From UHGV virus genome UHGV-1522688: a stretch of 49,863 nucleotides of DNA; one strand, given 5' to 3'. Made by a program: the position numbers and the translations under genes. Source of the DNA: a virus. The notes below the pieces were generated by a model. The model worked only from the letters and a program-made list of their open reading frames with translations. It did not search any database and was not told where the DNA came from. Of this stretch, positions 1-35,121 are shown in pieces. Position 1 is the first letter of the stretch. Every line of letters begins with the position of its first letter.

Positions 1-151
1 ATTTAAATAATTCACTTTAAATTCAATCATATAATCACACAAATACATCCAGAATCCAAATTAAGGGCGCATTTAGGTACACATTAACCTACGCGCCCTC
101 TCTTTTAGTTACCACCTATACTTTCAGTCTGACATATGGCTGGAGGTTTTT

Positions 152-823: not shown

Positions 824-1053
824 CGTACGAAGCGACAGAGAAAAACATCTGCTTTGAGCGAAAAGTGGCAGTTGAAGACAATCATGAACGATCTATGACT
901 CGATATTTACTTAATTCACTGTTATTCAAAGGGTTAAGTAAAAAAATATTATCTGTCACCTCAGTGCAATGCAATCTAAGGTTTCAAAGAACCCCCCTTT
1001 GAGTACACCGTAAGTTTTAAAATGTGAGGTAAGTTGATTTTACATATTTTCTA

Positions 1054-2124: not shown

Positions 2125-2283
2125 TAATTATGGTCACATCTAATTACTTTACATAGATACCCACTAGAAAGGGGACTTTTCTTAAAACTCAGCCGTCAAA
2201 GATTTAGAGTGGTTATCTACTGGTATGCTTCCGAATCTGCCAGTGCGGCTGAGTGGATTTCTAGTACCCTCTAGAAGATTTAG

Positions 2284-3132
2284 TTGATTAAAACAGGTCA
2301 TGTATCATCTTCAGAGTCAACATATCGCCAACTGTCTATCATTCCATTGAGGAAAAGTATGTCATCAGAAAATTTTGTCACCTTCTGGCTCGCTAGAGCC
2401 GATCTTCCATACTTTCTTGAACCTCATGAATTTTACGTTTCGGAGGCCAAGCGTAGACTTCTATCGCAGTTTGGCGATTTAGAACAAGAAGCAGAAAGGA
2501 GGGAACAACAGTATTTGGAAGCTACCTCAAAATATTTCGATCCTGATAACGATGATCCAATGGCTGCCTACGAGCAAGCCTACCACGTGGGAATTAATTA
2601 TGTATGGTCGCTTCTGGAGATGCAAAATACCGTGTTGTTGGCATTAACGGCAGGAATGTACCACCAGTTTGATAAAAAACTAAGAGAACACACCATCAAA
2701 GAACTAAGTAACTGGTGCAAAAGAGAATTAATTACTCCCATGATCTGGAATATAACTTTCCATCAGCTTATTGATTTACTCGAATGGATTGGCCTCAAAA
2801 TCAATGGAACCGGATACGGAGAGAGGATCAAAGCCTGTAACTTGGTAGTAAACGTATACAAGCATGGGGACGGGCCTGCGCATCAAACACTATCATTCAA
2901 TCATCCTGAGTACTATCAACACCCTACCGATGTTCGAGGTACGCAGAACATACATGACCATGATGATTTACATGTATCAGAAGAGCAATTTGTAGAGTTT
3001 GCTGACGCAATAACTGAATTCTGGAAAGCAGTTCCAGAGAATTGCTATTACTCAGATCTCAAAGAAGAACCCAAATGGTTGAGTAAAGTCGTAACAAAAT
3101 TCGATAAAAAACAGAAGGGAAATAGGGACTAA
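2284..3132 (+). CDS. hypothetical protein, A+T-rich islet gene 2
   Basis: 282-aa ORF (alternative start MSSENF about 2359) directly downstream of gene 1 on same strand; no recognised family. Confidence 0.5.
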   Translation: MIKTGHVSSSESTYRQLSIIPLRKSMSSENFVTFWLARADLPYFLEPHEFYVSEAKRRLLSQFGDLEQEAERREQQYLEATSKYFDPDNDDPMAAYEQAYHVGINYVWSLLEMQNTVLLALTAGMYHQFDKKLREHTIKELSNWCKRELITPMIWNITFHQLIDLLEWIGLKINGTGYGERIKACNLVVNVYKHGDGPAHQTLSFNHPEYYQHPTDVRGTQNIHDHDDLHVSEEQFVEFADAITEFWKAVPENCYYSDLKEEPKWLSKVVTKFDKKQKGNRD

Positions 3133-3240
3133 TTACCCATCTCAAAACATCAAGTTTGCAGTGCCCTGCTCCCCGTTTATTAGTATGGAAGTTAACAATG
3201 TCTGCTTCTGACACATAACAGCCCTTAAGATGGTAACTCG

Positions 3241-3290
3241 CCGTCATGGGGTGTCGGGGGTCGGAGGTTCAAATCCTCTCGTGCCGACCA
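3241..3290 (+). other. partial tRNA-Pro (3' ~50 nt incl. T-arm, acceptor 3' strand and CCA); integration-site remnant
   Basis: 'ccgtcatggggtgtcgggggtcggaggttcaaatcctctcgtgccgacca' matches the 3' half of enterobacterial tRNA-Pro(CGG) as recalled; the 5' acceptor strand 'cggcacg' and D-arm are absent upstream. Confidence 0.7.
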
Positions 3291-3303
3291 AAAATCCTCG
3301 AAG

Positions 3304-3330
3304 AACCAGCCTGTTACGGCTGGTTTTTTT
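3304..3330 (+). terminator. rho-independent terminator following tRNA remnant
   Basis: 8-bp stem aaccagcc/ggctggtt with 6-nt loop followed by TTTTT. Confidence 0.55.
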
Positions 3331-3420
3331 ATGCCTGTTTTCTGAACGGGGAAGCAACGGGGAATAATTGGGGAAAAACCCCGACACAAAACATCGACTT
3401 TACCGTAAAGTTTCAGCTAT

Positions 3421-3810
3421 TCACATCACTGGGCAGTCATCAAACTCCGCGTTCCTGGCATCATTAATGATGTACGTGATAACACCAAATATTGCGTGTG
3501 AAGAATTATAGCCATCACCGTCTTCTGGCAGCACTTCTCTTCTCCCGTTCTCCAGATTTATCAGGTGGGGCTGAGGGTGAGTTCGGTATCGCTTGATCCT
3601 GAATTCCCCATCTATCGCGCATATCAGCAGCGAGCCATCACAGGCTGAAAGCGACGCGTCCACAACAAGTAGTGCCCCCTGGATTATCCCTTCCCTGAAA
3701 TGTGAACACGATGCCCGCATGAAATAAGTCGCTGCGGGCTGGCTGATTAGCTGTTGATCGAGGGAAATCCTTGTTTCAACGTAATCACTGGCAGGTGAAG
3801 GGAAGCCCAT
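3421..3810 (-). CDS. UmuD'-like protein, encoded without the N-terminal arm (begins at the position equivalent to UmuD Gly25)
   Basis: From internal ATG with GGAGG SD: MGFPSPASDYVETRISLDQQLISQPAATYF... aligns with E. coli UmuD residues 25 onward ([29 protein letters not shown]); C-terminal 'AIDGEFRIKRY...FGVITYII' matches UmuD fold; Lys of the Ser-Lys dyad retained, GDSM motif diverged to CSHF. Confidence 0.8.
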   Translation of the reverse strand: MGFPSPASDYVETRISLDQQLISQPAATYFMRASCSHFREGIIQGALLVVDASLSACDGSLLICAIDGEFRIKRYRTHPQPHLINLENGRREVLPEDGDGYNSSHAIFGVITYIINDARNAEFDDCPVM

Positions 3811-3812
3811 GG

Positions 3813-4055
3813 CTATAGTCCTCCGTTTGGATTGAAAAGCTGAAAGGTACGGTTCTCCCCTTCCTGCGTTGATACATCGCGGAATGATGTCACATACCAC
3901 TCGATCCATTCGTTAGCCTGCTTCATCGTCCAGTTCCAGTTAACCTTGCTCAGTTCCTGGACAAACCGCTGTGTGGTGACGGTCTTCCGGCCATTAGGTT
4001 CTTGCTGTATCGAAGCATGCCAGGCCATTTCAATATCGCTGCGTCGTGGCATCAA
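3813..4055 (-). CDS. hypothetical protein, upstream partner of UmuD'-like gene
   Basis: 80-aa ORF ending 2 nt before the UmuD'-like ATG; not UmuC-like. Confidence 0.45.
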   Translation of the reverse strand: MMPRRSDIEMAWHASIQQEPNGRKTVTTQRFVQELSKVNWNWTMKQANEWIEWYVTSFRDVSTQEGENRTFQLFNPNGGL

Positions 4056-4501: not shown

Positions 4502-6058
4502 TCAATTTTGCTGGCTACCTTTCAGCGTCTCAATCACATTCTTCAGGGAATTGAGTTCAGACATCTGTTCCTTCATCGCTCTGCCCATATAAACCATAGC
4601 GCATGCCATATCGGCCATAATGACATTATTATCAAGGGCAAGGGTATCGTCTTTGAGACCAACCTCAATCTGATGGTCAACATATTCGTTACCGGACTCA
4701 TCCACACCAACAACGTCCTCAAAAACAGGTCCACCAGGCACTATCTTTACGTACTGCGGATCAACTTTAGTCAGATCCTGGGCAATAAGGCCAAAACGCT
4801 GTGTATCCGACCCCTTATACTTAAACATGGTCGGTAACCACTGCATGACACGGTCGAAACTGTCTTTCCCGTCCCGATATTGGATATCTTCTTTTAGATC
4901 GCGGTCTGATGTCGCATTCTTGGCGAACACGTACGATCCCTGCCAGTTTGACCCGGATTCGTTCCATACGTCAGTAGTGATATCACCAGACTGAGGATTG
5001 AATCTGAACATCCTGTGATATCTGGCATCGCCCATAAAATGTAAGACGCCATGTGGCCAGCCATTGGCACCATTAGAAATGAGTCCCAGTGACAGACGAG
5101 TACTCCACCCACCCGATGCAGAAGAACCACCAGAAACGATTGGAGCCCAGCCACCATCATTTCCACCAACAATGGCGGACCAGTAAGGGGTGGTCCATGG
5201 ACCATCAACATCCCCCCAGCCACCCGATCCGCACTGTCCCCAGAAACCACGTGGTGATTGTATAACCCCACCATAACCAGAAAGAAAGTTGAAACGGTAT
5301 GTGTTCGCTCCTGCTCCAAAACTATTCGCGATTAGAGCAATGGCATCCAGATAATTACCCGCACCTCGTATCCCGCCAAACTGATAGAACGAATTCCCCA
5401 TCCACCCCTGCAGCTGGTTCATCATCCAGCCCAGTTCACCATCAACGTTATTCGACGTCAGTAAAATATCCTTCTTGACGCCAGCAGTGCTTTTGACGCC
5501 TGTACCCGACCCACCCGCCACCGAATTGACGCCACGGGTGCCAAGAACACTACCGAACGTAACATCCTGAGAGTTTCCCAAAGTGAGATTATCGCGGGCC
5601 GCATTTTTATCAGGCAGATCGGCCAGGGCCTGGCTTTTCAACAAAGCATTATTGATCTGATCAATAATGCTTTTCCATGATGGTCCTGTAAACTCCGTAT
5701 TGTCAGGAAGCCTGACAGTAATATTGCCGTTCGCAGAGAATAAAAGTTGCCAGTTCTGTTTGTCGTAATTCAGCCCCCGCAGCGCCTCCGTGTTCTGCAC
5801 CACCATTGCGGCAGTAACCATATTCAGCGCCACACGAGGAACAGCTGACCAGGCCGCGCCAGATTGGGTTGGCCCGGTGTAATTGCTGACCAGCGTCAAC
5901 GCTGTACCACTTTCCACGGACTTAACCGGAAGCGTATAGGGAACACCACCGACCGTAACAACAATAAAATCTCCGGCCGCCACCTCAGTGGTAAACGCGG
6001 TCCCGCTGCCAGCGACCGCAGCCGAGTTATTCATCAGGGTTAATGTTCCTGCTGACAT
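4502..6058 (-). CDS. side tail fiber protein with C-terminal intramolecular chaperone (peptidase S74-like) domain
   Basis: 518 aa; Gly/Ser-rich repeats; C-terminal 'SDRDLKEDIQY...RFGLIAQDL...' typical of auto-cleaving chaperone domain of phage fibers. Confidence 0.75.
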   Translation of the reverse strand: MSAGTLTLMNNSAAVAGSGTAFTTEVAAGDFIVVTVGGVPYTLPVKSVESGTALTLVSNYTGPTQSGAAWSAVPRVALNMVTAAMVVQNTEALRGLNYDKQNWQLLFSANGNITVRLPDNTEFTGPSWKSIIDQINNALLKSQALADLPDKNAARDNLTLGNSQDVTFGSVLGTRGVNSVAGGSGTGVKSTAGVKKDILLTSNNVDGELGWMMNQLQGWMGNSFYQFGGIRGAGNYLDAIALIANSFGAGANTYRFNFLSGYGGVIQSPRGFWGQCGSGGWGDVDGPWTTPYWSAIVGGNDGGWAPIVSGGSSASGGWSTRLSLGLISNGANGWPHGVLHFMGDARYHRMFRFNPQSGDITTDVWNESGSNWQGSYVFAKNATSDRDLKEDIQYRDGKDSFDRVMQWLPTMFKYKGSDTQRFGLIAQDLTKVDPQYVKIVPGGPVFEDVVGVDESGNEYVDHQIEVGLKDDTLALDNNVIMADMACAMVYMGRAMKEQMSELNSLKNVIETLKGSQQN

Positions 6059-6116: not shown

Positions 6117-6356
6117 TCATTGAGGGCAATTCGAACTGGTGAAATTATTTTTATTCACCCATCGCCAGTTAAAGGGATAACCGGCCCTGTACTCAGTCTG
6201 ATTAACAACTTTTTGCACACCGTAAATTTGCACTGACTGGGGCTGTCCACCAAGCACTAACTCAGCCTGACAAACCGGTTTCTGTTTCTCCAGAACAGGT
6301 CCTGAACAGGCTGAAAGCACCAGGCAGACAATAACTGGAATAATTATATTTTTCAT
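6117..6356 (-). CDS. small lipoprotein, possibly Cor-like superinfection-exclusion protein
   Basis: 79 aa; signal peptide with lipobox LSAC; located immediately after tail fiber genes, the usual cor position; function inferred from position only. Confidence 0.45.
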   Translation of the reverse strand: MKNIIIPVIVCLVLSACSGPVLEKQKPVCQAELVLGGQPQSVQIYGVQKVVNQTEYRAGYPFNWRWVNKNNFTSSNCPQ

Positions 6357-6464: not shown

Positions 6465-7139
6465 TTAATCATATGCAGCTGTGTTTATCGCCGTTATCAC
6501 AATTCCACTATTTGTCGTACCGATTGAAGAGCCGCTTGCTGTTGTTGATGTAAGTCCTTTTATTCTCGTTCCCGCACCTTCATTGAAGCAACCTGTACCC
6601 ACATCCACAGACTGAATGATTGGCTGTCCACCAGGTGCCGAACCAGCATGAAGGAGAACAGATCCCAGCCCCATCGGATTTATGGCCCATTTGCCTGCCA
6701 TGTATGTATCAATGTTAAGCCCACCACTTACAGCACCTGGTGAACCAATAGTTGTAAGGTCGCTTAATACCCGGGACTCATTCGTAAGTACCAGTGTCCC
6801 TTCGGCATCCCATATAGCCACCCCCCAGGCAGGAAGCGTAAGCGGATATATGGCAAAAAAATAGGCCTCAAGGACAAAAGCCGATCCCCTGTAATTAGAC
6901 GCATTAACACTGAACGTATTGCCACTTTTTGAAGCTGATATCTTCGCCGGGGCGCTGGTTCGTGCAAATGCAATCCCTCCCTTCTGACCGTCGATAGTAA
7001 CAGACGCCGAAACACTGTTAAAATTCCCCCCAAAAGTTGAGTTTACAGTGACTTTCCGGTAAAGCGTCATTGGTGTGGAATCAGGCGTGATAAAAGGGTT
7101 CCCGTTAGGTAATGAAATCAATGCGCCATATTTAGCCAT
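6465..7139 (-). CDS. hypothetical phage protein (tail-associated by position)
   Basis: 224-aa ORF between J and tail fiber, contiguous with upstream ORF. Confidence 0.5.
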   Translation of the reverse strand: MAKYGALISLPNGNPFITPDSTPMTLYRKVTVNSTFGGNFNSVSASVTIDGQKGGIAFARTSAPAKISASKSGNTFSVNASNYRGSAFVLEAYFFAIYPLTLPAWGVAIWDAEGTLVLTNESRVLSDLTTIGSPGAVSGGLNIDTYMAGKWAINPMGLGSVLLHAGSAPGGQPIIQSVDVGTGCFNEGAGTRIKGLTSTTASGSSIGTTNSGIVITAINTAAYD

Positions 7140-7454
7140 CTACGCAGTCTCCGCAAAAACGATTAACTGCACTTTGACTGCCGGGTAATCATTAATCCCA
7201 TCACTACCTGAAGGCTGTATTGTTATGGTGTTTCCAGATGCAATAATATTTCTTTTATCTGTGTAACTTATTGTCCCTTTATCCTCCAGAGTACCAACCG
7301 CAAAACCGACCTTTAAACCGGGCTCGAGGTTGAACTGGTAGCTTCCCGTTTTCTGACCTAAAGCAAGATCGATGATTCCCACCACGGTTACAGGTTTAAT
7401 GCCATAGTTATTCGGGACACCGTTAGCGTCCCATGTCTGAATTCCCCATGTCAT
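7140..7454 (-). CDS. hypothetical phage protein (tail-associated by position)
   Basis: 104-aa ORF immediately downstream of J. Confidence 0.5.
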   Translation of the reverse strand: MTWGIQTWDANGVPNNYGIKPVTVVGIIDLALGQKTGSYQFNLEPGLKVGFAVGTLEDKGTISYTDKRNIIASGNTITIQPSGSDGINDYPAVKVQLIVFAETA

Positions 7455-10400
7455 CAGAATACCCCTGTTAATTTGCCAATCTGCACGCGGAGAACGCCAT
7501 TGCCATCTTTAACGCTGTAATTCAGATTGGTCATTTTCGTTGCCCCCTCCCCGGCAACAGCCCCATTCATTTCAAACGTTCCGTCTGATTTCATAATGGT
7601 GCCTGTTTGTCCCTGAACATAATTAGCGGAGCGCAGTTCGCCAATTTTTGCCAGAGTGATTTGACTATACTGAATAAAAGCATCGCTGATAAACACCTGA
7701 CCATTAATAGAAGCAAACGGAGAATATTGTGTATCACCGCTGCCACTCATCAGGACGAACTGATTGGCGTTAAAGCCGACACGGGTGACTACCGGCTTAC
7801 CCGCTTCGGCCAGCACGGCAATCGACATCCCGGCGTTATACATCACACCGTTTATTCGAACTCCGGTTTTAAGAGTGTAAATTGCAGATGCCCCGGTCGC
7901 ATCAACCACGGCGGTGAGCTTATCTTCCAGCGCGGCAGTCACATCATTGAACTGCGCCTGCACCTGCGTCGACATTTCAGCCATGGCTTTATCGACCTGC
8001 GCAATGGTCGTTTTAACCACCAGAATATCCGCGCGTACCTCGCCGTACTGCGCCCACTGGTGTTCCACGGTTGCATGGTTGGCCAGCGCGTTCTGCAATG
8101 CGGCTTCGAGATTGGTATCAATGTCGCCAGTCAGGCGGTCACCGTCGGCAGATGTCAGGAAGTCATCAGCAATATCGCCCAGGTAGTCGTCAGCATTCGC
8201 ATTAGATTCACCACGAACCCAGTCGGTCCAGTCACTCTGATTACCAATGCGATCAACCAGACGAGCCCGGTACCAGAACTCCTGACCTGCCTTCAAACCC
8301 AGTTGGGTATATGTGTGTTGAGGATACGGAACTCCTGCAAGCAGCAGAGGATTATCCCCATTTCCGTTTGCTGAATACTGCAGTTCGGTCTGGAGAGTAT
8401 CACCTGTATCCGCCGGAAAGGACCAGTCAGCCTGTATGCCCCAGTTGATTGCTGTGGTGCGCAGACCAACCGGCTTGGGAACATCCCCAGTACGTCCAGT
8501 GAGATGAGTCAGCACAGAAGAGGTCCACAAACTGGACGCTCCACCAGAGTTAATGGCGCGGACTCTCACGAGGTAATCGCCTGAGAAAATCCCGGCGATC
8601 TCTATATTGCGCAAGCCTGTTTCGGGAATGTTGATCCACTCATTATCACCACGTTTCCACTGTGCCTGATACGCGACAATATCCGCCTGAGGTTTCCCGT
8701 TTTTATCTACTGGCGCATCCCAACTCGCAACCATGGTTGCAATACGCTGCCCCTGCCGGACCGAGTCGTAACTGCTAATCGCGATATTCGTGGGCTGGCT
8801 AACCAGGCCTATCGGTAACAGACTAATCGGCGGCGTATCCAGCCGGGCGTTGTTATCAACGGCATCGTACTTAGCCCCGTTGTACTCTGCACCGGTGATA
8901 CTGTAGGTGTTCTCTTCATCGTTAAATGTCAGATTGGTTACACGGAAATACTGGAGGCGCAACTGGCCTGCATCGATAACAAAAATGGCATTAGGTTGTG
9001 GCTCAGCGGTAAAGGCAGTAGCCAGTATCAGTTGCTGGCCGTTAACCGCCTGAATGGTTCTGCTCTCAACGGTACCGCCCAGGGTACGAATCATCAGCGT
9101 ATCACCCGCCACCGCACTCGTGCCGCGATCGGTAGTTACTGACTTCAACCCTGCATCGTAATCAGTAATACGTCCACCATAGACACGCCCAGACAGCCGC
9201 TCATCTGCAAACGCAAATACGGTCCCCGGCACATAAGCGAAGCCATCGAGTCCCGTCTGGACAGTGATAATACGGTCCAGAGAATTGGAGTACACTGCCC
9301 AACCACCCCGGCGCTGAGCTTCGCTTTCACGTGTGCAGCCAATCGCGGTTAGCTGAGTCTGCTTAAACTTGAACTGCTTAACCAGATCGGGAAACATCAC
9401 TGCAGTAGTGCGATCCTGATAGTGGTTATCCGGGTCACTAAAGTTAATCAGCGCTGAGCTATAGCGATTCTTTTCACTGCCGCTGGAATAGGTTGGTTTC
9501 CCGACCACAGAGGCACGGGTGAGGATCTGAAGTTTTGACGTATCCGCAGGCATATCAGAGACAACATTGAACATGTTGTTGCCCCAGAAAGTCATTCCGT
9601 TGAAGCCCGCGGCAATATCTTTAATCACCTGCCAGGCATCAGCCTGGGACTGGATGTAAACGTCAAACATGAAGCGTGGCTCGGTAACGCTTCCGCCTTT
9701 CCCGTCGGGTACCTTCTGGTCGCAGCGCTGGGCGATGCGATAGAGCTCCCACTTATCGAGCATTTCTGGCGTCACGCGGCGCCCAAGACCGAAGCGCGGC
9801 TCAGTCACAACATCGAACCAAATCCACGCCGGGTTATTCGTCCAGCCCCATTTAAACGTCCCGTCCCATGTTCCGCTATAAGTCCGCGCTATTGGATCAT
9901 AGTTCGAAGGGATTCGGATGATGCGCCCCTTCGGCATGCAGGAAATCTTAGGGATGTTGTTGAATGACTTTGCGTTAAAGGACACGTACAGCAGCGCTGT
10001 GTGTGGATATCGTAGGCGAGCATCGATCACCTCAGTAATCGCTTGCACCTGCGTTTTGTTCTGCAGCATCTGGCTGGTGCTGTCATCGGTGTCACGCACC
10101 ACTCGAATTTGCCAGCCAGTGCTGGCTTTGGGAAGATTAATACGGTGGGTTAGTTCATAGAGCGAACTGAGCTTCTCTGTGACGGTTTTAGTCATGACTG
10201 TCGAGTAAGCGCCACCGTCCACCGCAAGGTCAATATGGTACTGAACCGTGGTGCCGACAATATCCCCATCGTTTTCCTGCTGCTGTAACCCAGGGATGCC
10301 AATACGAACCAGCACCGCGTCAATCTGGGTGTTACTCAGTGCGCGGGTCCATGGTGTGGCCTTTGTCAGCGATACGCCAACCGTAGTTTCATTCTCGACT

Positions 10401-10663
10401 GCAGGGAATCCCGGTATTGGTGTCTGTGTCTGTGTGCCAGGCCGGAATTCCCATGACACATTTTCAAAATTCATCGTTCCGTCGGGGTTTCCCAACGGCG
10501 TACCGTCCAGGAATATCCGGGTCGCATCCAGGCCACCAGCAAACTCACCCTCCCCGAGCGCCAGCAGCATGCGGCAGCGCGCCATTGACTGAGCCGAATC
10601 GGGCTGTTCTACAGGTGTATGCTGCTTCTGGCTGCCACCCTTTGCACCAGTGATCACTTCCAT
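7454..10663 (-). CDS. J: host specificity protein J (central tail fiber / tail tip)
   Basis: Start taken at MEVITGAKGGSQKQHTP; long blocks similar to lambda gpJ (e.g. 'IPSNYDP...YSGTWDGTFK', 'DKWELYRIAQRCDQKVPDG'). Confidence 0.9.
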   Translation of the reverse strand: MEVITGAKGGSQKQHTPVEQPDSAQSMARCRMLLALGEGEFAGGLDATRIFLDGTPLGNPDGTMNFENVSWEFRPGTQTQTPIPGFPAVENETTVGVSLTKATPWTRALSNTQIDAVLVRIGIPGLQQQENDGDIVGTTVQYHIDLAVDGGAYSTVMTKTVTEKLSSLYELTHRINLPKASTGWQIRVVRDTDDSTSQMLQNKTQVQAITEVIDARLRYPHTALLYVSFNAKSFNNIPKISCMPKGRIIRIPSNYDPIARTYSGTWDGTFKWGWTNNPAWIWFDVVTEPRFGLGRRVTPEMLDKWELYRIAQRCDQKVPDGKGGSVTEPRFMFDVYIQSQADAWQVIKDIAAGFNGMTFWGNNMFNVVSDMPADTSKLQILTRASVVGKPTYSSGSEKNRYSSALINFSDPDNHYQDRTTAVMFPDLVKQFKFKQTQLTAIGCTRESEAQRRGGWAVYSNSLDRIITVQTGLDGFAYVPGTVFAFADERLSGRVYGGRITDYDAGLKSVTTDRGTSAVAGDTLMIRTLGGTVESRTIQAVNGQQLILATAFTAEPQPNAIFVIDAGQLRLQYFRVTNLTFNDEENTYSITGAEYNGAKYDAVDNNARLDTPPISLLPIGLVSQPTNIAISSYDSVRQGQRIATMVASWDAPVDKNGKPQADIVAYQAQWKRGDNEWINIPETGLRNIEIAGIFSGDYLVRVRAINSGGASSLWTSSVLTHLTGRTGDVPKPVGLRTTAINWGIQADWSFPADTGDTLQTELQYSANGNGDNPLLLAGVPYPQHTYTQLGLKAGQEFWYRARLVDRIGNQSDWTDWVRGESNANADDYLGDIADDFLTSADGDRLTGDIDTNLEAALQNALANHATVEHQWAQYGEVRADILVVKTTIAQVDKAMAEMSTQVQAQFNDVTAALEDKLTAVVDATGASAIYTLKTGVRINGVMYNAGMSIAVLAEAGKPVVTRVGFNANQFVLMSGSGDTQYSPFASINGQVFISDAFIQYSQITLAKIGELRSANYVQGQTGTIMKSDGTFEMNGAVAGEGATKMTNLNYSVKDGNGVLRVQIGKLTGVF

Positions 10664-10718
10664 ATTACATCCATAAAAAAAGCACCCAATTGGGTGCTTG
10701 ATATTCAGAAAGGAGTTT

Positions 10719-11312
10719 TCAGATGTCTTCTGCGACGATGCCAGCACTGATGATGGCGCCGCCAATCTCGCGCTCACCATAAAGAAGCGCGACCGGGTTA
10801 CCCATCGCAAGGGTGTTCACCGAGCCACCGAAGGCATATGAGGGTCTATTGTCAGGATCGTCTCGCCCCTGTAGTCCTTTGGGCTGGGGCGAAAGCATCT
10901 GGTAAATCCCACCAGCCATCATTCCGATACCAGCGGAGACCATACCCGCGCCAATGATACCTGCTGAACCGAACGTCATGCCCGTGACGACGATGCCCGC
11001 CACAACCATGACAGCACCCAATATTGTCTGGAACAAACCCGCTTTTTTTGCCCCTTCCATCACGGGTGCTATGCGAATATCGGTGCTTCCGGCTAGGTTC
11101 TTAAAATCATCCGCGCCAATGTTGCGCCTGCCGCGAAACACCGCGAACGTCATACCATTCTTTTTGGCGTTCAAAAGATAGCTTTCCAGCCCGTCCAGGT
11201 TGATACATAACGCCTTCACGGCTTCCGCTGACGTCTGCACCGCCAGTTTATGCACGCGCCCAAATCGCGCACCCAGCGCACCGTACAATCGAATCGTGGT
11301 TAAGCGCGCCAT
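10719..11312 (-). CDS. I: tail assembly protein I
   Basis: 197 aa, position between K and J, Gly/Ala-rich hydrophobic C-terminal half typical of gpI. Confidence 0.7.
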   Translation of the reverse strand: MARLTTIRLYGALGARFGRVHKLAVQTSAEAVKALCINLDGLESYLLNAKKNGMTFAVFRGRRNIGADDFKNLAGSTDIRIAPVMEGAKKAGLFQTILGAVMVVAGIVVTGMTFGSAGIIGAGMVSAGIGMMAGGIYQMLSPQPKGLQGRDDPDNRPSYAFGGSVNTLAMGNPVALLYGEREIGGAIISAGIVAEDI

Positions 11313-13369: not shown

Positions 13370-14983
13370 ATGAATATTGTGCATTATGCAGCCATTGGAG
13401 CTGTAGCTTTCGTAGTTGTTCTAACAATTTTGGTGATAAACATCATTAAATTAAAGTCAGCCAAGGCTGATGCAGCAGAAAAGGCGGCAAAACTTGAGCG
13501 TTACGCGTCAATCACCAATGCTGAAACAGAAGCTGAACGAATCGTGAATGCAGCTAAGCAAACCGCAGAAGAGTTAATTATTGATTCGCAGAATAACCTT
13601 GACGAGGCAAAAGCTGAAGCAGCCAACACTATTGCAGCCAGTGAAAAAGATGCAAGATCTATAACACAGCGTGCGGAGGATATTCTATCAGATGCGCGTT
13701 TAGCAGCTAAGCGAATGAACGCAGAGGCGCTGACCGCTGTAGAAACACAAAGAGTCAAGCGTGCAGAAATTGAAAAACAGATTGATGAATTGCGTAAATC
13801 CTATCGTGAGAAAAAAATCACTTACGATGAGCTGACGGAAGCCCTGTCAATTTATAAAGATGATATGGAATTTGCTGACATGGGGTTCTATGCACCACAC
13901 TTCGATTTTGATACCTCGGCTAGTTTTCAGGATGCGATCAAGGCATGTCGCGAACGGCAAAAAAATCTGCTACGTGACAAAACTGAATTTGGCGCAATAC
14001 ATTGCCCTACTGAATGGACGGTTGGCGGCTCTAAAAGTGAAGGTCGGAAAATGACCACTCGCGGCATTCAGATGACAGCACGTGCATTCAATGGTGAGTG
14101 TGATGCAGCTATTGCAAACTGCACATTTAAAAACGTTTATCAAATGGAGCAAAGAATTTATAAAGCCTTTGATGCCTTGAATAAGATGAATGAGGTTAAC
14201 CAGATTTACATCAATCGTGCTTTTTTAGATTTGAAGCTGGATGAACTTCGACTTACACATGAATATCGTTTGAAAAAACAAGAAGAACGAGAAGAACAAC
14301 GTGAAATCCGCGCTCAGATGGCTGAGGAGAAGCGAGCTCAAGCCGAAATTGATCGTGCACTTCGAGAGGCTGAAGATGAAGAACGCCGCGCCCAAAAAGC
14401 GTTGGATAAAGCCCGAAAAGAAATGGAATCGAAGCTAGCCCAAATGACAGCTGAGCAAGTTGAGAAACACCAAGCGAAGGTATCCGAATTAGAACATGCC
14501 TTAGAAGAGGCATTGTTGAAAGGCCAAAAAGCTCTTTCTATGGCTCAACAAACTAAACGCGGCCACGTGTACGTTATCTCTAATATTGGTTCGTTTGGTG
14601 ATGATGTTTTTAAAATAGGAATGACACGTCGACTTGACCCTCAAGATCGAGTGGATGAACTGGGTAGTGCATCAGTCCCATTCCTGTTCGATGTTCATGC
14701 AATGATTTTCAGTGAAGATGCACCAACAATGGAAAACATGCTCCACCAGCGTTTCAATGAGCAACGCACTAACCTAGTTAATAAGCGTAAAGAGTTTTTC
14801 AATGTAAAATTAAGCGATATCAAAGATGCTGTGTTTGAGATCGCAGGTAAAGATGTAGATTTTATCGAAACAGCAACTGCTCAGCATTATTATGAAACAA
14901 AGGCAATTCGTAAGCAGAAAGCGGATATCATTTCAGTTGTTCCTCAAGAGGAAAAACTACCTAAATTTGCGGACGCAATATAA
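13370..14983 (+). CDS. membrane-anchored coiled-coil protein with DUF4041-like region and C-terminal T5orf172/MUG113 (GIY-YIG-like) domain; candidate defence/exclusion factor
   Basis: 537 aa; N-terminal hydrophobic helix (AIGAVAFVVVLTILVINII); long Ala/Glu/Lys/Arg-rich helical stretches; C-terminal 'GHVYVISNIGSFGDDVFKIGMTRRLDPQDRVDEL...VPF...LHQRFNEQRTNLVNKRKEFF' matches T5orf172 signature as recalled; opposite strand to the tail operon; A+T-rich. Confidence 0.7.
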   Translation: MNIVHYAAIGAVAFVVVLTILVINIIKLKSAKADAAEKAAKLERYASITNAETEAERIVNAAKQTAEELIIDSQNNLDEAKAEAANTIAASEKDARSITQRAEDILSDARLAAKRMNAEALTAVETQRVKRAEIEKQIDELRKSYREKKITYDELTEALSIYKDDMEFADMGFYAPHFDFDTSASFQDAIKACRERQKNLLRDKTEFGAIHCPTEWTVGGSKSEGRKMTTRGIQMTARAFNGECDAAIANCTFKNVYQMEQRIYKAFDALNKMNEVNQIYINRAFLDLKLDELRLTHEYRLKKQEEREEQREIRAQMAEEKRAQAEIDRALREAEDEERRAQKALDKARKEMESKLAQMTAEQVEKHQAKVSELEHALEEALLKGQKALSMAQQTKRGHVYVISNIGSFGDDVFKIGMTRRLDPQDRVDELGSASVPFLFDVHAMIFSEDAPTMENMLHQRFNEQRTNLVNKRKEFFNVKLSDIKDAVFEIAGKDVDFIETATAQHYYETKAIRKQKADIISVVPQEEKLPKFADAI

Positions 14984-15043: not shown

Positions 15044-15532
15044 TTACATGTTTTTGTAATAGCCGACTTTAGAATCAAAGTCCTGTTTTGCGAGTGGCGT
15101 TTGGCTTGTCACATAAGTCTCCCAGGAGCTGTACGCCTCTACGAGCGCGCGCTTTTCTTCTGCATCCTTAGTACTCGATTTCATTATTTCAAACACTCCA
15201 GAAGCATTCTCTTTGCGTTTGTTTTTTCTGTTAGCGCCGCAAGTCGCTATTGCATCGGCTACAGAATTATTCCACCCAACCAACTGCAGGATCTCCATTC
15301 TCTTTTGAATCACGAACTGATCCGCAGACGCATTCCGTGCCTGAGTCGACAGGTATTCAGCAAACTCCATTTTGTTCATTGGCACTTTGGAGACTGACTC
15401 AATATTTACGTCACACTTCGAAAGCTCATCATACTTGGCTTGTTTTTGCGCGTTGTTGACTGGACCATTGCCCGCGCACGCAGAAAGAGCCATTGCTAAC
15501 ACCACTGTCGTGAAGACCTTTTTCATTATCAT
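15044..15532 (-). CDS. lipoprotein of unknown function (moron)
   Basis: 162 aa; MKKVFTTVVLAMALSAC lipobox signal peptide; convergent with 13370-14983; A+T-rich. Confidence 0.6.
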   Translation of the reverse strand: MIMKKVFTTVVLAMALSACAGNGPVNNAQKQAKYDELSKCDVNIESVSKVPMNKMEFAEYLSTQARNASADQFVIQKRMEILQLVGWNNSVADAIATCGANRKNKRKENASGVFEIMKSSTKDAEEKRALVEAYSSWETYVTSQTPLAKQDFDSKVGYYKNM

Positions 15533-15626: not shown

Positions 15627-18600
15627 CTATTTTGGCTGGAACTGCCTACCAAGGAGGCCATCACTTCGAGTTGCCCTCATAAGGATCTCCGTCACCTTAG
15701 TTTCTATTTCCTTCCCTAACGCCCGCGCTGCTGCGCCTCCGTCTCCAGATGTGTTAGATGTTGCATTGCCCTTATTATCGACATAAATATCAATGTTGAC
15801 CTGCGGCTGGGCTCCACCTCCACCCTGCGCCCTTACACCAAGTCTTCCAGCAGAATCCCGTGTCAGCGGCATGATGGCCTCTTCACCTGCCTCAGCAAAA
15901 ACTCCACCTTTGGCGAATTTAGATGCCCCTTGGAAGGTGAAATACTGAGGAGAGTCGTAGACGCCATTCACGTACTTACTGAGGCCCGGAGACTCATAGA
16001 CTCCGCCTTTTGCGTTCGGGGTGAATGATGGAACAGCGAATGATTGCCCGCCCCCAGCCGAAGCAACAGAGCCACCACTGATCCACCCCATTGCGGCCTG
16101 CACTGCATAGGCAACCATGAGGCGGTTCGTCACATCAAGGATCATCTTGAGCATGGATTTGCCGAATTCTTTAACTGATGCTTTGCCAGTGGTCATCAGC
16201 TCAGTCAGCATGTCGCCCAAGCCAGTCAGCGTGGAGCTGGCGACGTTTTTCACAGCATCGTATGTGTTAGTGGCAGCGTCCAGATACTCATTCCATCCGC
16301 TTAAAGCACCAGCCTTCCAATCACCGCGAAGCTTATCCTCTTCGGCGTAGTAGTTACGAAGGGCTGCCAGCTCTTTCTCATAGCCAGCATCTTCTAGCTT
16401 TCCGCCACCATTCAGCCATCCCTGACGAAGCTGCGCTTCTTCGGTCATTCGCTGAGCCATACGACTGCTTAAACCTGACCCGCTACGTAACGCCTCAGAC
16501 TTTTCAGCCATCTGCGTTACATACTTATTAGCCTGCTGTGCCAGGCCGTTAATCTTCTGCTGGGCCTCTACTTCTTTGTTCTTCTGATCCACAACCTTCG
16601 CGGCATTCAGAATGGCTTCTCGGCTAGACAGGAGTGACTTCTCCTGCGCGGTCAGTGCGCGGGTTTTGGCAGCCTCGTCCAGTTCCACAAAGCGTGACTG
16701 TTGTTTGCTGAATTCGGTATTTTTGGCGTGAATATCGCCGGTCTGACGCAGGGTTTCGAGGGTTTCCGTTAAGGTCCTTGCCTGCGCCCGGTAGTTCTCC
16801 AGGGTGCGATCGCCAGCATCGAGTGTTGCTTTCGCTTCTTTTGTCTTTTTGGCTGAGTCTTCTGCAAGCTTCGAGACTGCGTTTCTCGACTCGCGGCTCG
16901 AGCCCCCTTCCCCTTTAACGCTGGCACCTCGCGCTTCGGCTTCATAGCTTGCCTGTGCATTAGGCGCAGTGACCCGCTTCCAGAGTTCATCGTAGCGTTT
17001 TTTGTTCGCTGCGATCTCTTTGTCAGCTTCCGCCCCGGCCTTTTTCATAGCCTCAACATCCATGCCGAGGAAGTCGGTTATTGCTCCGCCGCCCGGGATT
17101 TTCTCAGCCCATCCTGCAATGGTCCCAGTAAACTTGGAATCCAGAGAGGTAATGTTGAGGAACAGGTCCTTTATCGAAGCTTCAACCAGGTTGAAAATAT
17201 CGATCACCTGATTTCCCCAGGCGCGGACAGTAATCCCGATATCATCAAAGGAGTCAGATGCTGTTTTCTTCAACCACTGCCAGGACTGCCCAATATTGTC
17301 GGTGGCCCTGTTGGTCTCTTCTGCGCGCTTTGCCATAACGCCAGCAAACAGGTTGATGGCTTCGTTTACCGCCGCCTGCTCCCCCTTCTGCTTACGCAAC
17401 TGGATGATGTGCTTCATCATGGCTTCATCAACAAAGCCATACTGCTCATTCAGGCTGGCCAGCCCTTTCACCGGGTCGCTGACAATCTTGCCGAAGTCGG
17501 ACATCGCCGTTTTGGTGTCACTGCCAGCCTTGCCCATCAGAGTGATGGACGTGGCGATCTGCTTCATCTGGCTGGCGGTATATTTACCAGTGTCATTCAG
17601 CGTAACCAGCGTATCTACGGTGGAACTGATGGATGTATTCGTCTTGCCGGCCACCTCTTCAGCAGCCTCATTGAGCTTCTGCATTGAGGAAAAACCAGCG
17701 CCACCCATCATGATGACCGATCGCGCCACTTGGTCGAATTGCTCGGATGAACTATATGCCGCAGTAGCCAGCAGACCAACCGTACCGACCAGACCTGCCA
17801 GCGCAATAGTGGTTGGGTTAATCATCCCAGCCATGCTGCGGATGTATTCGCCGACGCCAGTGAGCGCCCCCTGAACCCCGCCAAACTGGTCTTTAATCTG
17901 CCCGCCCTGTTGCAGCAGGATCAGGAAAGGAGACTGCCCACCAGCCAGCTGCGTGGCGATATCGGTGAACTGTGCTGGTAGTGTGCGCATTGCTGCGCTG
18001 TACTGGCCGACAGATATACCGGCACGACGCGCCGCAGCCTCCTGGCGAGATAGTGCCTCTGGCAGCACGTCAGCCACGCCAGACAGGCGCTCACGCGTCT
18101 GGTTCAGGATTGTATTGAAGTGCTCGAACTGCGCGCCGTTAATACGCCCCGCTTCGAAGTGTGCCACCAACTGCGCATGCTGCTCATCCAGCGAGTTAAA
18201 CGCGCGGATAGTCGGGTCGATAGAGCCCAGCAGGTTTTTCAGTGCTGCTGATTGTTTCTCGGCAGCCTGGGTCGCGGCCAGTTCTGCCTGGGCGCGCGCC
18301 GCTGCTTCTCCGGTATCCGTCAGTTTTAACCGGGTCTCGTCCAGGATTTTGTTGTAGTGCTGAAAATCATCAGTATCCAGGAAACCTTTGGTCTGGAAGT
18401 TGCGCAGTGCGGCCTGTTGTTCATCCAGCCGGTTCAGCGCCTTGTTAACTGGATCGATATTCTCCAGCAGCCCCTTCAGCGCGATCTGCTGTTCCTTGAT
18501 ACCTTCAGTGCCCTGTTTCGCAGACTCAGCACCAGCACGGAATACGCTATTAAGGTCATCAGCTTTGCCTACGGCACCCGCCGCGGCTTCACCGAGTTTA

Positions 18601-18674
18601 TCCAGCTCGTTGCTGGCTGTTTTCAGGTCAGAAACATCGGCCCGTAAAGTAATCGAGGCGATCTGGTCAGTCAT
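15627..18674 (-). CDS. H: tail tape measure protein H
   Basis: 1015 aa, coiled-coil-rich, position between GT and M. Confidence 0.9.
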   Translation of the reverse strand: MTDQIASITLRADVSDLKTASNELDKLGEAAAGAVGKADDLNSVFRAGAESAKQGTEGIKEQQIALKGLLENIDPVNKALNRLDEQQAALRNFQTKGFLDTDDFQHYNKILDETRLKLTDTGEAAARAQAELAATQAAEKQSAALKNLLGSIDPTIRAFNSLDEQHAQLVAHFEAGRINGAQFEHFNTILNQTRERLSGVADVLPEALSRQEAAARRAGISVGQYSAAMRTLPAQFTDIATQLAGGQSPFLILLQQGGQIKDQFGGVQGALTGVGEYIRSMAGMINPTTIALAGLVGTVGLLATAAYSSSEQFDQVARSVIMMGGAGFSSMQKLNEAAEEVAGKTNTSISSTVDTLVTLNDTGKYTASQMKQIATSITLMGKAGSDTKTAMSDFGKIVSDPVKGLASLNEQYGFVDEAMMKHIIQLRKQKGEQAAVNEAINLFAGVMAKRAEETNRATDNIGQSWQWLKKTASDSFDDIGITVRAWGNQVIDIFNLVEASIKDLFLNITSLDSKFTGTIAGWAEKIPGGGAITDFLGMDVEAMKKAGAEADKEIAANKKRYDELWKRVTAPNAQASYEAEARGASVKGEGGSSRESRNAVSKLAEDSAKKTKEAKATLDAGDRTLENYRAQARTLTETLETLRQTGDIHAKNTEFSKQQSRFVELDEAAKTRALTAQEKSLLSSREAILNAAKVVDQKNKEVEAQQKINGLAQQANKYVTQMAEKSEALRSGSGLSSRMAQRMTEEAQLRQGWLNGGGKLEDAGYEKELAALRNYYAEEDKLRGDWKAGALSGWNEYLDAATNTYDAVKNVASSTLTGLGDMLTELMTTGKASVKEFGKSMLKMILDVTNRLMVAYAVQAAMGWISGGSVASAGGGQSFAVPSFTPNAKGGVYESPGLSKYVNGVYDSPQYFTFQGASKFAKGGVFAEAGEEAIMPLTRDSAGRLGVRAQGGGGAQPQVNIDIYVDNKGNATSNTSGDGGAAARALGKEIETKVTEILMRATRSDGLLGRQFQPK

Positions 18675-32090: not shown

Positions 32091-32651
32091 TTATTGGGCG
32101 GCATTCGCGTTGACTTGTCTCAGCATTTCAATTTCCCGGATGCCCGCTAGCTGGTTATTCGCCTTCTCAATGGTAGCCAGCAGCGGATTAATCCATAGAA
32201 CAGCCTGACAGTACGTTATTGAGCTGGCGGCAGCGGTGCTATCACCGGCTGCGTCAGCGTTCCCGGTATCGGGTTGCATTGCGCTGGCACGTAAACGGTA
32301 CGCGTATTTGAGCAGCCCACCAGCAACATCAGCAGGCACAGGCAGATCACAGTTTTTTTCACGTCGTAGAATCTCCCGGTATTTGATGACTGTTCTCTCT
32401 GTGCCGGCATCTATCAGCGAATTCATGCGGCTGGCGTTCTCTGCTACTTGGTTAAACCGGTTGAAGTTGAAAGCCTGTGTAGTTATTACCGTCGCCTGTA
32501 ATGCGTTATCGCTGCGCAGTACCCGGTTGTCATTCTCGAACGCGGTCAGCGCCGCATTGCTGCGTACCAGCAGAACACAGAGCACCGCAATGATGGTTAC
32601 GACGACCACCAGCAGAATCGCGACAATCGTAATTTTGCTGGTTTTCATCAA
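32091..32651 (-). CDS. Rz: i-spanin (Rz-like)
   Basis: 186 aa; N-terminal TM; coiled-coil periplasmic domain; embedded Rz1; directly after endolysin. Confidence 0.8.
32216..32362 (-). CDS. Rz1: o-spanin (Rz1-like lipoprotein) embedded in Rz in alternate frame
   Basis: GTG start; '[17 protein letters not shown]' lipobox signal; Pro-rich mature part. Confidence 0.7.
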   Translation of the reverse strand: MKKTVICLCLLMLLVGCSNTRTVYVPAQCNPIPGTLTQPVIAPLPPAQ

Positions 32652-33220
32652 AATACCCCCGGAACTGATACCGGAATGCCTGGGTTAAGCGGCCCGAGCC
32701 CATCACCAAGAACCTGCGGTTTTTCTGCCCACAGGCAAACTTCACGCTCAATCTCACGCCGGGTGATTAAACCCTTCCACTGTTTGCCACCGGCATATGT
32801 CCAGCGCCGTAATTGTTCGCAAGCCCCTTTTGTGTCGCCCAGGTTGATTTTGCGTAGCAGCGTGGAGGTTTTGAAGTTGCCAGCACCGACGTTGTACGCG
32901 AATGAGTAAAGTGCACCCCGCATTGTTGCCGGGATCGGAACCTTGATGTAGGGGTCAATCTGACGTGCGATGGTATTCAGATCTTTTGTGAGCAGAATGG
33001 CACACTCTGTCTCGGTGTACGTCTTCCCGATTTTGACGTCGCTGCCAGTGTGCCCGTAGCATACCGTCCAAACCCCAACTACATCCCGATAAGGCTGATA
33101 GCGCACACCTTCAAGGCCATCATTACCCGTTGGACCAATAATCAACGCCGCTGCGATAGCAATAGCGCCAGCGGGTATAGCTGCAATAACGCTATTCTTC
33201 AGCTTTGGTGGCATAGCCAT
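32648..33220 (-). CDS. R: SAR endolysin (GH24 lysozyme)
   Basis: 190 aa; N-terminal weakly hydrophobic Gly/Ala-rich SAR segment '[19 protein letters not shown]'; lysozyme catalytic region '[23 protein letters not shown]'. Confidence 0.85.
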
Positions 33221-33470
33221 TGCGCCGATCCTCCCGTTCTTTCCAGCGGAAATACCAGTTCACTGCACAGGTAATAACTGTGCATGCGATACCGACAATA
33301 ATTGCCCAGTCGCTCAGGCTTAACCCTGCAATTCTGTCGGCCAACATCCAGGACACCTCTTTTGCTGTTTTAGCTGTTTCGGCATATGCCTTCGCTGATA
33401 CACCGCAGCCGGTCAGCGTGGTTCCTGTTCCATATGAAAGTCTGCTGTAAATGGTGCTCATTCTGGTCAT
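33192..33470 (-). CDS. S: holin (phage 21 S-like pinholin, class II)
   Basis: Start taken at [11 protein letters not shown]; two TMDs; C-terminal '[13 protein letters not shown]' resembles S21. Confidence 0.7.
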
Positions 33471-33850
33471 AGCCTCACCTCCGATTTTTCGGATGGCGCT
33501 GTGTGTGATGAAAGGGTCAGGCTTCACGGGCTGGATTTATCAACAAAGCACGTAGTAATTGATTCCCGTGAGCCTGAAATGAAAAAGGCCGCCATTTGGC
33601 AGCCTCGAAAAAAAATAAGATTGTTTAAATCGACATATTAAGTGGATTACCAAAAACCTCTGACATAGCGATAAGACAAATGATGTCGCTATAAGTAACA
33701 TGTCATATACCAACGACTGATTTTCCTTTCAGCCTCCTAACAGAGGTATCCGTGCAATGCGCTATCTGAATAGCTCATCACGTACGATACAGCAACATTC
33801 TTCTGTATTAAAATCTATGAAATGAGCAACTGATAATAGTGGTTCAAATA

Positions 33851-34096
33851 CTATCGGCATGAAGCGCTGGTACTGCATTGTAGTGTATCAGTAGGCACCC
33901 ATTTACCATTGCTACATACGAATTTCTTCACTCCAGGAAAACCACCTGAAGTTGCACACGTATAGCATTTCTCTTGCCCATTTACACATGCAGATTGTAT
34001 TTGGTTGGGTGATTTATCAATTGTGGAAGAGTTTGTGCTGCATGCTGATAGAAAAAACGCTGATAAAACAGTGGAGTAAAAAATTATCTTATGCAT
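33851..34096 (-). CDS. Cys-rich secreted lipoprotein (moron between Q and lysis genes)
   Basis: 81 aa; 'MHKIIFYSTVLSAFFLSAC' lipobox; 8 Cys in mature part; A+T-rich. Confidence 0.55.
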   Translation of the reverse strand: MHKIIFYSTVLSAFFLSACSTNSSTIDKSPNQIQSACVNGQEKCYTCATSGGFPGVKKFVCSNGKWVPTDTLQCSTSASCR

Positions 34097-34301
34097 TTTT
34101 TATACCTTCATAAGATTATTAATATTATATATTTATCATTATAGGCGCCTTTAAAAATCCTTCCAACCGACATTCAGAATGCTTTTTCTTACTCTCCAGA
34201 AACGCAAAAACCCAAGGCGTCAACCTCAGGCTTGAAAACTCATTTACTGCCAGTGCATACAACAATGGCACAATATCAGATTTACACGAAATATATCCAT
34301 T

Positions 34302-34991
34302 TCAGTTCGGTTTTGCAAGACTTACATCCAAATTTGTCGCCTTTTGTTGTGAACGTGATCGCGAAACAGAAAGGAGCGCCTGATTATCAAGGTGCACGAA
34401 TTCTTGTTTCATCGCCAGCCAGTGCGGGAGGTAGGTTTCAGTCCAAGTTGGCTTTGATACCCCTACCAGTTGCGCCAGCTGCTGGTACTCGTATGTGCTG
34501 CGCCCTGCTAGTTCTGCTTTCACATCCTGAGCAGCAAGCCAAATTAACGCCTTCAACCGTTCGATGGTTTTACCAGCTATCTTTCGAGACCCCATCTGCG
34601 ACTTGAATTCAGCCCACGCCCACTGAGTAATCAACACCTGACTCTCCCAGCTTACGTTCTCGCTGTAGTTCCACAGTAGCCAGGCCTTCTGGGGTTCTTC
34701 AAGTGACATCAGCGCCCGGCGCCACGATGCGGTGTAGAATTCTACCGGCTGCACCAGGGGAATATGTGAACCCTTGGCATGCGACTGTTTGCCCGGTATT
34801 GGTGGGTTATCCAGCGTAATCATTTTCCCGGTCACTTCATCATACACACGGAGCTTCTTACGTTTAAACGTTCCCGTATCAAACTGGGCGTTCTCAAGCC
34901 ACGCCATCAACTGCCCTTTCGTCGCACCACTTAAATCGGCGGTGGCCACCATCAGCTGCTGGCGCACGTATTCGAGAAATTGAGTGTTCAT
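34302..34991 (-). CDS. Q: late gene antitermination protein Q
   Basis: 229 aa, immediately upstream of lysis cassette region; family assignment by position and size. Confidence 0.7.
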   Translation of the reverse strand: MNTQFLEYVRQQLMVATADLSGATKGQLMAWLENAQFDTGTFKRKKLRVYDEVTGKMITLDNPPIPGKQSHAKGSHIPLVQPVEFYTASWRRALMSLEEPQKAWLLWNYSENVSWESQVLITQWAWAEFKSQMGSRKIAGKTIERLKALIWLAAQDVKAELAGRSTYEYQQLAQLVGVSKPTWTETYLPHWLAMKQEFVHLDNQALLSVSRSRSQQKATNLDVSLAKPN

Positions 34992-35121
34992 ACAGTACCG
35001 CCTATGGTTTTAATGTAGTTCTTCAGTATTCGGTAGTCCGTCAGCACAGAGCCGGGGAAATGGTATAAGCGCAATCGCTGCCAGCGAACGCGGAGGTGAT
35101 CGGCAAGGTAGGTTTCGAATG

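Follow-up and report, generated by a model that had tools for sequence, protein, structure and literature searches.

A candidate moron encoding a predicted cysteine-rich lipoprotein between antiterminator Q and the holin gene of a lambdoid enterobacterial prophage

Lambdoid phages carry cargo genes between the antiterminator gene Q and the lysis genes, and in Shiga toxin (Stx) phages stx remains linked to Q (PMC3430580). Genes of this kind, termed morons, are recognised in the Hendrix/Juhala definition by a deviating G+C (GC) content, by carrying their own promoter and terminator, by being expressed from the repressed prophage, and by the fact that related phages lack them (summarised in PMC3594210). 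Some phage cargo genes encode lipoproteins, such as Bor (PF06291), which is encoded beside the lysis genes and can confer serum resistance (PMC3594210). Cor (phrog_1119) and the Llp protein of phage T5 are lipoproteins that inactivate the receptor FhuA. Here we describe a gene predicted to encode a cysteine-rich lipoprotein of 81 amino acids (aa), located between Q and the holin gene of the virus genome UHGV-1522688 (49,863 nucleotides; this whole stretch is called the window). With a probability of about 0.6 for the explanation as a whole, the A+T-rich cassette that carries the gene is best explained as a moron, that is, a horizontally acquired and self-contained cargo coding for a lipoprotein, inserted in a hypervariable slot of a lambdoid enterobacterial prophage. 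Elements of this kind are well known; the protein itself is very rare and was assigned to no known family.

Similar to stx and other Q-lysis morons of lambdoid phages, the gene follows Q, a PR'-like promoter and a tR'-like terminator, precedes the holin gene, has the orientation of the late operon, differs in composition from its surroundings, has its own promoter-like site and is absent from sister phages. The preliminary description had placed it between Q and the holin at the position taken by stx in Stx phages, and both statements were borne out, with a PF06323 match on one side, a PF16080/PF04971 match on the other, and the order Q, PR'-like promoter, tR'-like terminator, cargo, holin (PMC3430580). 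The interval 33528-34301 is the entire gap between Q and the holin open reading frame (ORF) as listed, both on the minus strand. The listed holin ORF begins at a GTG codon at 33527, whereas in mEp237, HK225 and E. coli prophages the annotated holin genes have 279 bp and correspond to the ATG at 33470. Unlike stx, the cargo is a small lipoprotein rather than a toxin and is unrelated by sequence (no Pfam match), and no tRNA genes were found at the locus. As had been stated from the letters alone, there is no resemblance to Shiga toxin: neither the RIP A subunit nor the pentameric B subunit was matched in Pfam, and the architecture differs.

The composition of the interval and its distribution among other genomes support a foreign origin. 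GC content is 0.358 at 33605-34204, compared with 0.50 in the window and 0.52 in Q, and GC at third codon positions is 0.32 in the lipoprotein gene and 0.58 in Q. Megablast searches against phages and 5,426 E. coli genomes matched only both ends of the interval, and the 574-bp cassette core had no match in the phage, plasmid (distant mode) or E. coli records searched. Only two further copies of the cassette were found, one in IMG/VR (UViG_2568526234_000003, hereafter L004, with the change P54S) and one in a 627-nt ENA contig (L007, with I26F and P54S). An exact-sequence search of contigs for the allele of the window itself gave no record. The earlier proposal of an A+T-rich insert is therefore strongly supported, the flanks being widely shared and the core being present in only two other public records. 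In agreement with the description of morons, the cassette is absent from otherwise related phages and its composition is unlike that of the neighbouring genes. As for an own promoter and terminator, the promoter is a consensus match within the cargo, and the terminator belongs to the conserved flank rather than to the cargo.

The slot was compared among phages with the same holin. In IMG/VR, 393 holin relatives were found, from which 80 loci (L008-L087) with holins 98-100% identical were fetched and 73 with sufficient upstream sequence were analysed. The distance from Q to the holin ranges from 404 to 2355 nt among the compared loci, and 74 slot sequences (660 nt upstream of the conserved flank) fell into 39 clusters, in which the cargo of the window is a singleton. 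Of the 74 alignments extending to the holin start, 60 lose similarity on the holin side at 33580-33613, on or just above a second terminator-like hairpin. For the Q side, 21 of 28 alignments stop just below the tR'-like hairpin, at 34179-34206; in several loci with another Q, this hairpin is all that is shared with the window. Local BLAST gave similar borders: similarity to the CRE444 prophage of E. coli, whose annotated Q is 90% identical in DNA, ends at about 34194 on the Q side, and holin-side similarity to CRE444, mEp237 and HK225 ends at 33590-33604. Because the similarity borders coincide with both hairpins, the site can be described as a cargo slot bounded by two conserved terminators. 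Other cargos at the site are unrelated: CRE444 encodes a protein of 171 aa, mEp237 one of 213 aa, and HK225 one of 136 aa in the opposite orientation, and no Pfam family or signal peptide was seen for any of them. No diverged lipoproteins were found in the slot of the 73 phages with the same holin.

The 81-aa precursor consists of the signal peptide MHKIIFYSTVLSAFFLSAC and the mature part STNSSTIDKSPNQIQSACVNGQEKCYTCATSGGFPGVKKFVCSNGKWVPTDTLQCSTSASCR. The n-region contains K3, the hydrophobic core of 13 residues is IIFYSTVLSAFFL, and the lipobox L-S-A-C ends in Cys19. The sequence agrees with the PROSITE PS51257-type lipoprotein rule (positively charged n-region, uncharged hydrophobic h-region, [LVI][ASTVI][GAS]C, Cys at 15-35). 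In E. coli, Asp at position +2 holds a lipoprotein in the inner membrane; because the residue here is Ser and not Asp, the predicted destination is the outer membrane. Seven cysteines are present (positions 19, 37, 44, 47, 61, 74 and 80), and Cys19 is the predicted lipidation site, which leaves six free. Thus, the ORF and lipobox signals agree with the cysteine-rich lipoprotein of 81 aa first proposed, and the eight cysteines assigned to its mature part have to be corrected to six free ones out of seven in total. The even number of free cysteines suggests a disulfide-bonded exported protein. In the mature protein, a Ser/Thr/Asn-rich tether of about 17 residues is followed by a module of 44 residues that holds the six cysteines. 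AlphaFold2 models contain three beta strands, with a predicted local distance difference test (pLDDT) score of 56 for the first model and 66.6 for the domain alone.

Chance was evaluated by shuffling. Among 5000 shuffles of the 574-bp cargo, an ATG-initiated ORF of at least 81 aa appeared in 2.6%, and an ORF with a lipobox in 0.14%. The lipobox by itself is not decisive, since shuffles of the whole window yield 1.2 loose lipobox ORFs per 50 kb. The Shine-Dalgarno-like sequence, the promoter, the even number of free cysteines and the synonymous-biased alleles add support for a real gene. The three alleles are about 98-99% identical, the ORF is intact in all of them and all seven cysteines are retained. 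Five sites of the coding sequence vary, three synonymously and two non-synonymously, neither of the latter at a cysteine, and the ratio of non-synonymous to synonymous rates (dN/dS) is about 0.19 (p=0.07). In the non-coding cargo on its flanks, 8 sites vary in 211 nt. These changes are consistent with a coding sequence under constraint, in a test that is underpowered.

Candidate promoters and terminators were located by consensus scans of the minus strand. From their layout and their position right after Q, the first promoter and the first hairpin would form a PR'/tR'-type pair. L004 retains the geometry of the late promoter (TTGCAG-17-TATATT) despite a diverged 3' end of Q. The tR'-like hairpin has a folding free energy (dG) of -12.9 kcal/mol, and both differences in L004 keep or strengthen its pairing. 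The second hairpin (33606-33585) has a dG of -16.3 kcal/mol (z = -4.0), equally good folding was obtained in 0 of 200 shuffles, and it is common to HK225, mEp237 and Klebsiella phages; in L004, a C-to-T change retains a G-U pair. A terminator-like hairpin between the gene and the holin had been noticed before, and its character was confirmed, with a T tract, but it lies outside the insert and forms the border of the slot on the right, which is conserved. The sigma-70-like site TTGGAA-17-TATAAT scored best among the promoter matches of the region; it is located within cargo-specific DNA and present in L004 as TTGGAC-17-TATAAT. Judged by this consensus match in A+T-rich DNA, the site is a putative active promoter.

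Expression and export can be pictured as follows. In a lysogen, transcription would probably start at the sigma-70 promoter of the cassette and end at the hairpin before the holin, so that the lysis genes would not be expressed. After induction, RNA polymerase modified by Q would proceed from PR' through tR', the lipoprotein gene and the second hairpin, and the lipoprotein would become abundant alongside lysis and virion proteins. Late transcripts can arrive at the lysis genes only through this gene, and expression from the late promoter, as put forward in the preliminary description, therefore follows from the anatomy of the locus; nevertheless, the promoter-like site of the cassette makes expression in lysogens at least as likely as late-only expression. 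The precursor would be exported by Sec, lipidated at Cys19 and cleaved by signal peptidase II, and the Lol system would deliver the mature lipoprotein to the outer membrane. There, the tether of about 17 residues would carry the beta-rich 44-residue module, locked by up to three disulfides formed via DsbA/DsbC.

Table 1. Features predicted at the Q-lysis junction and in the adjacent lysis genes of UHGV-1522688
Feature	Position	Strand	Basis or remark
Lipoprotein gene, 81-aa precursor, 63 aa mature	33851-34096	-	ORF and lipobox; lone sizeable ORF of the interval
Signal peptide (residues 1-18) and Cys19 for lipid	34040-34096	-	Lipobox L-S-A-C; Ser at +2
Cys-rich domain, C37 to C80	33857-33988	-	6 Cys in 44 residues; resembles C-terminal half of CCP/Sushi module
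A+T-rich cargo cassette (candidate moron), about 574 bp	33607-34180	.	GC content, absence from relatives, singleton in slot clustering
Untranslated cassette tail, 244 nt	33607-33850	-	No supported ORF, no Rfam family
Shine-Dalgarno-like GAAGG, 8 nt before ATG	34105-34109	-	Sequence reading
Sigma-70-like promoter of the cassette, TTGGAA-17-TATAAT	34138-34166	-	10/12 match, perfect -10
tR'-like intrinsic terminator, left border of cargo slot	34198-34233	-	Terminator scan; hairpin 34208-34233 and T tract
PR'-like late promoter, TTGCAA-17-TATATT	34290-34318	-	9/12 consensus; -35 overlaps Q stop codon
Second intrinsic terminator, right border of slot	33575-33606	-	Terminator scan; 9-bp G+C-rich stem, loop AAAU, T tract
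Antiterminator Q, 229 aa	34302-34991	-	Pfam PF06323 Phage_antiter_Q, E=2e-100
Holin, 92 aa, dual-start M-T-R-M; opens lysis cassette	33192-33470	-	Pfam PF16080 and PF04971
Lysozyme, signal-anchor-release (SAR)-like look	32648-33220	-	Hydrophobic N-terminus
Rz-like gene	32091-32651	-	
Rz1-like lipoprotein ORF	32216-32410	-	Embedded in Rz-like gene

Searches for relatives characterised the product as an orphan protein, with three near-identical alleles in about 15 billion proteins searched. Queried with the whole protein and with its mature part, a word-indexed search of 5.8 billion proteins returned the self-match only, and nothing was found in a scan of 241 million metagenome records. Besides the self-match, a HMMER scan of 1.84 billion representatives reported two giant repeat proteins, P0002 (14 repeats) and P0003 (8 Ig-like repeats), which were not taken as homologues, their scores being inflated by repeats and biased composition. 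Among 32 million genome contigs the only match was the signal peptide and tether of a lipoprotein of Spirabiliibacterium falconis (192 aa, NZ_JABMIJ010000011.1, L005, 6004-6582), in which the signal peptide and first tether residues FFLSACSTTSSIDK are closely similar. This protein was not accepted as a relative, since beyond that stretch the DNA alignment shows nothing and the mature parts have no relationship to each other. Sub-threshold profile matches to DUF6006, MapA and YgdI/YgdR were driven by the signal peptide. The label 'DUF4969' of the NCBI entry DAZ53678.1 (P0001) was not reproduced (no Pfam DUF4969 match with the whole protein at E<=0.1 or the mature part at E<=10), and is probably a signal-peptide artefact of automatic annotation. 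In the homology check named in the preliminary description, Pfam, PHROGs, NCBIfam and PADLOC gave no match to a lysis accessory protein. An Rz1-type outer-membrane spanin was also not matched: the gene lies upstream of the holin, no PHROGs spanin family was found and the window has its own Rz1.

The cysteine-rich domain resembles part of the CCP/Sushi/SCR module. In PDB searches with phmmer, the mature part matched HpARI, a protein of helminths (E=8e-4), and complement factor H (E=2e-4), and seven of the ten matches listed were CCP/Sushi proteins; with the 46-residue cysteine-rich domain all seven matches were CCP proteins (HpARI 1.6e-4, factor H 2.3e-4), factor H being represented by several entries. 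All CCP alignments have one register, in which the hallmarks G40, Y45-x-C47, G55, C61-S-N-G-K-W66 and C74 are matched, following the pattern G-x4-Y-x-C ... G ... C-x-N-G-x-W ... C. Six controls, comprising the sequence read in reverse, two full shuffles and three in which every Cys and Trp stayed fixed, gave no CCP match (best E 0.29), and the signal therefore does not come from composition or cysteine spacing alone. Nonetheless, matches to single modules are weak (<=12.6 bits), and the low E-values arise by summing repeated modules. Pfam Sushi PF00084 was not matched by the mature part even at E<=10. Factor H CCP1-4 was the top Foldseek match of the first model, not significant (E=1.6), and the fold searches do not confirm a CCP fold.

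The CCP framework has four cysteines paired as C1-C3 and C2-C4, with C2 in a Tyr-x-Cys motif and a conserved Trp between C3 and C4. Compared with it, the equivalents of C2, C3, W and C4 are present at typical spacing (Y45-x-C47, C61, W66 and C74). The canonical C1, about 25-30 residues ahead of C2, would coincide with Cys19, which is not free because of its predicted lipidation; C37 might take its place. The similarity to modules of factor H and HpARI thus concerns the hallmark positions and spacings of the C-terminal half, whereas the N-terminal half, the first cysteine and the 'P..I.NG' stretch are missing, an extra pair (C44 and C80) is present, and the protein is predicted to be lipid-anchored and is prophage-encoded. 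That the likeness reflects a real structural resemblance is somewhat less probable than an explanation without one, and we treat it as a lead rather than as family membership.

The lysis genes adjacent to the cassette (32648-33470, minus strand) look like a pinholin/SAR-endolysin system with a holin of the P21-S/HP1 family. Rfam gave no credible family on 33000-35000. The 244-nt tail behind the lipoprotein gene folds unremarkably (z = -2.6) and was found only together with the cassette. At 33540-33713 (minus strand), a 57-aa hydrophobic ORF with a TTG start and AGGAGG...AAGGA upstream crosses the second terminator hairpin; it has no family match and no conservation evidence, and is probably spurious. 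The small ORF 33762-33878 is likewise unsupported. A scan of the window for lipoboxes gave three other convincing lipoprotein ORFs, namely Rz1, a Cor homologue at 6117-6356 and a 160-aa lipoprotein at 15044-15526 (minus strand; lipobox LSAC; phrog_8179, E=1e-47). The latter lies just downstream of the long ORF 15627-18674 in the virion-gene region and adjoins a gene of 537 aa at 13370-14983 (plus strand), which has DUF4041 and T5orf172/MUG113 (GIY-YIG-like) domains and a reversed orientation within the tail-gene region. This DUF4041 gene looks like a defence-type moron. At one end of the window, part of the stretch 1-3400 has a match in each of the 5,426 E. coli genomes, in most cases at no more than 80-90% identity, which suggests a chromosomal flank of a related enterobacterium other than E. 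coli. It is followed by an UmuD-like gene at 3421-3909 (phrog_811).

Two groups of phage lipoproteins are comparable to the product of the cassette. Like lambda Bor, it is a small phage lipoprotein predicted for the outer membrane and encoded by an accessory gene beside the lysis cassette; unlike Bor, it is rich in cysteine and without sequence similarity, and its gene precedes the holin, whereas the bor gene lies after Rz. PF06291 was not matched by the whole protein at E<=0.1 or by the mature part at E<=10. With Cor and T5 Llp it shares a mature length of about 60 residues and, as proposed here, receptor masking; its position in the genome differs. The cargo protein had no match to phrog_1119 at E<=1, and no T5 Llp chain was among the PDB sequence or fold matches listed. 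The search itself recovered the true Cor of the window (6117-6356, minus strand, 79 aa, phrog_1119 E=4.3e-26), which serves as a positive control. As is usual for cor, the gene follows that of the J-type central tail fibre (7454-10810); it is flanked by a moron for a 224-aa 'membrane associated protein' (6465-7139, phrog_425) and the gene of a 518-aa side tail fibre (4502-6058), and its presence suggests that the phage uses FhuA.

A mini-domain that is held on a tether and locked by disulfides would most plausibly serve for binding. By analogy with Cor and T5 Llp, the module may bind an envelope protein from the periplasmic side and mask or inactivate a receptor, excluding phages or colicins; we propose this role tentatively, and favour it over the other functions, with a late-phase role and a serum or host role next and no function at all as the least likely. 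Several points weigh against the explanation given here. Pfam, PHROGs, NCBIfam and PADLOC returned no family, so the function is without homology support; the evidence for conservation is thin (three alleles about 98-99% identical, dN/dS p=0.07); confidence in the structure models is low (pLDDT 56 and 67); promoter-like hexamer pairs are not rare in DNA of 36% GC (5 found, 3.1 expected); and since the phage has its own Cor, a second receptor-masking lipoprotein is not needed for self-exclusion of the FhuA type. Alternatively, the protein may matter mainly in lytic growth and not for lysogenic conversion, for example by blocking the receptor on lysing cells and debris, in the manner of T5 Llp, so that fewer progeny are lost, or by tuning the envelope or the timing of lysis: the J-type central fibre and the 518-aa side tail fibre make a second receptor beyond that of Cor possible, the gene is co-oriented within the late operon directly upstream of the holin, and polymerase modified by Q must transcribe it. 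We regard this late-phase role as unlikely, however. The gene is dispensable, being missing from about 390 phages with the same holin (73 of whose loci were analysed for slot content), its own promoter, foreign GC content and the terminator before the holin point to expression in the prophage, and the phage has a full lysis set without it (holin, SAR-like lysozyme, Rz and Rz1), with no match of the protein to a PHROGs lysis family.

A role towards the host of the bacterium is slightly less likely still. In such a role, the lipoprotein would stand on the cell surface and shield the lysogen from complement, either as Bor does (PMC3594210) or as a small CCP/Sushi mimic comparable to factor H and poxvirus VCP. 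The PDB matches of the cysteine-rich domain, confined to CCP proteins in one register and lost in the six controls, agree with this, as do the top Foldseek rank of factor H CCP1-4, in spite of its lack of significance, and the deposition of the sequence as a metagenome-assembled virus genome (NCBI 'MAG TPA ... Caudoviricetes'). But the single-module scores, the missing N-terminal half and the lack of a PF00084 match speak against a CCP mimic, similarity to Bor was not found, and surface exposure of Lol-sorted lipoproteins is exceptional in enterobacteria. The more specific idea, in which a gut enterobacterial prophage would bear a lipid-anchored truncated CCP/Sushi-like module that is displayed by the lysogen, binds complement or another host ligand and is produced in a burst at induction like Shiga toxin, so that a bacterial virus would have its own equivalent of the mimics of complement regulators known from poxviruses and helminths, is improbable. 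Finally, the ORF might be a passenger without function, either a decaying remnant or a chance ORF in A+T-rich filler swapped into a recombination hot spot. Its extreme rarity (three records in about 15 billion proteins and none among the metagenome records), the functionless tail of 244 nt behind it and the failure to establish purifying selection statistically (p=0.07) would fit a passenger, yet the low frequency of comparable ORFs in shuffled cargo (2.6%, or 0.14% with a lipobox), the well-spaced Shine-Dalgarno sequence and the promoter, the intact ORF in three alleles with seven cysteines kept and three of five changes synonymous, and a CCP-like pattern that is non-random and lost in shuffled controls make this quite unlikely. 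A moron that encodes a predicted exported lipoprotein remains the preferred explanation of the cassette.

Cargo at the Q-lysis junction is made in lysogens and, in addition, in a burst on induction, and stx is so consequential at this junction because cargo there is made in both situations. A new lipoprotein in the same place, predicted to be exported and rich in disulfides, is a plausible lysogenic-conversion factor, which may confer serum resistance, change the envelope or exclude phages or colicins. Should the CCP-like pattern prove real, this would be an unusual instance of an extracellular module of animal type in a phage of a gut bacterium. The two conserved terminator hairpins, as exchange borders for dozens of unrelated cargos, may aid in finding other cargo genes.

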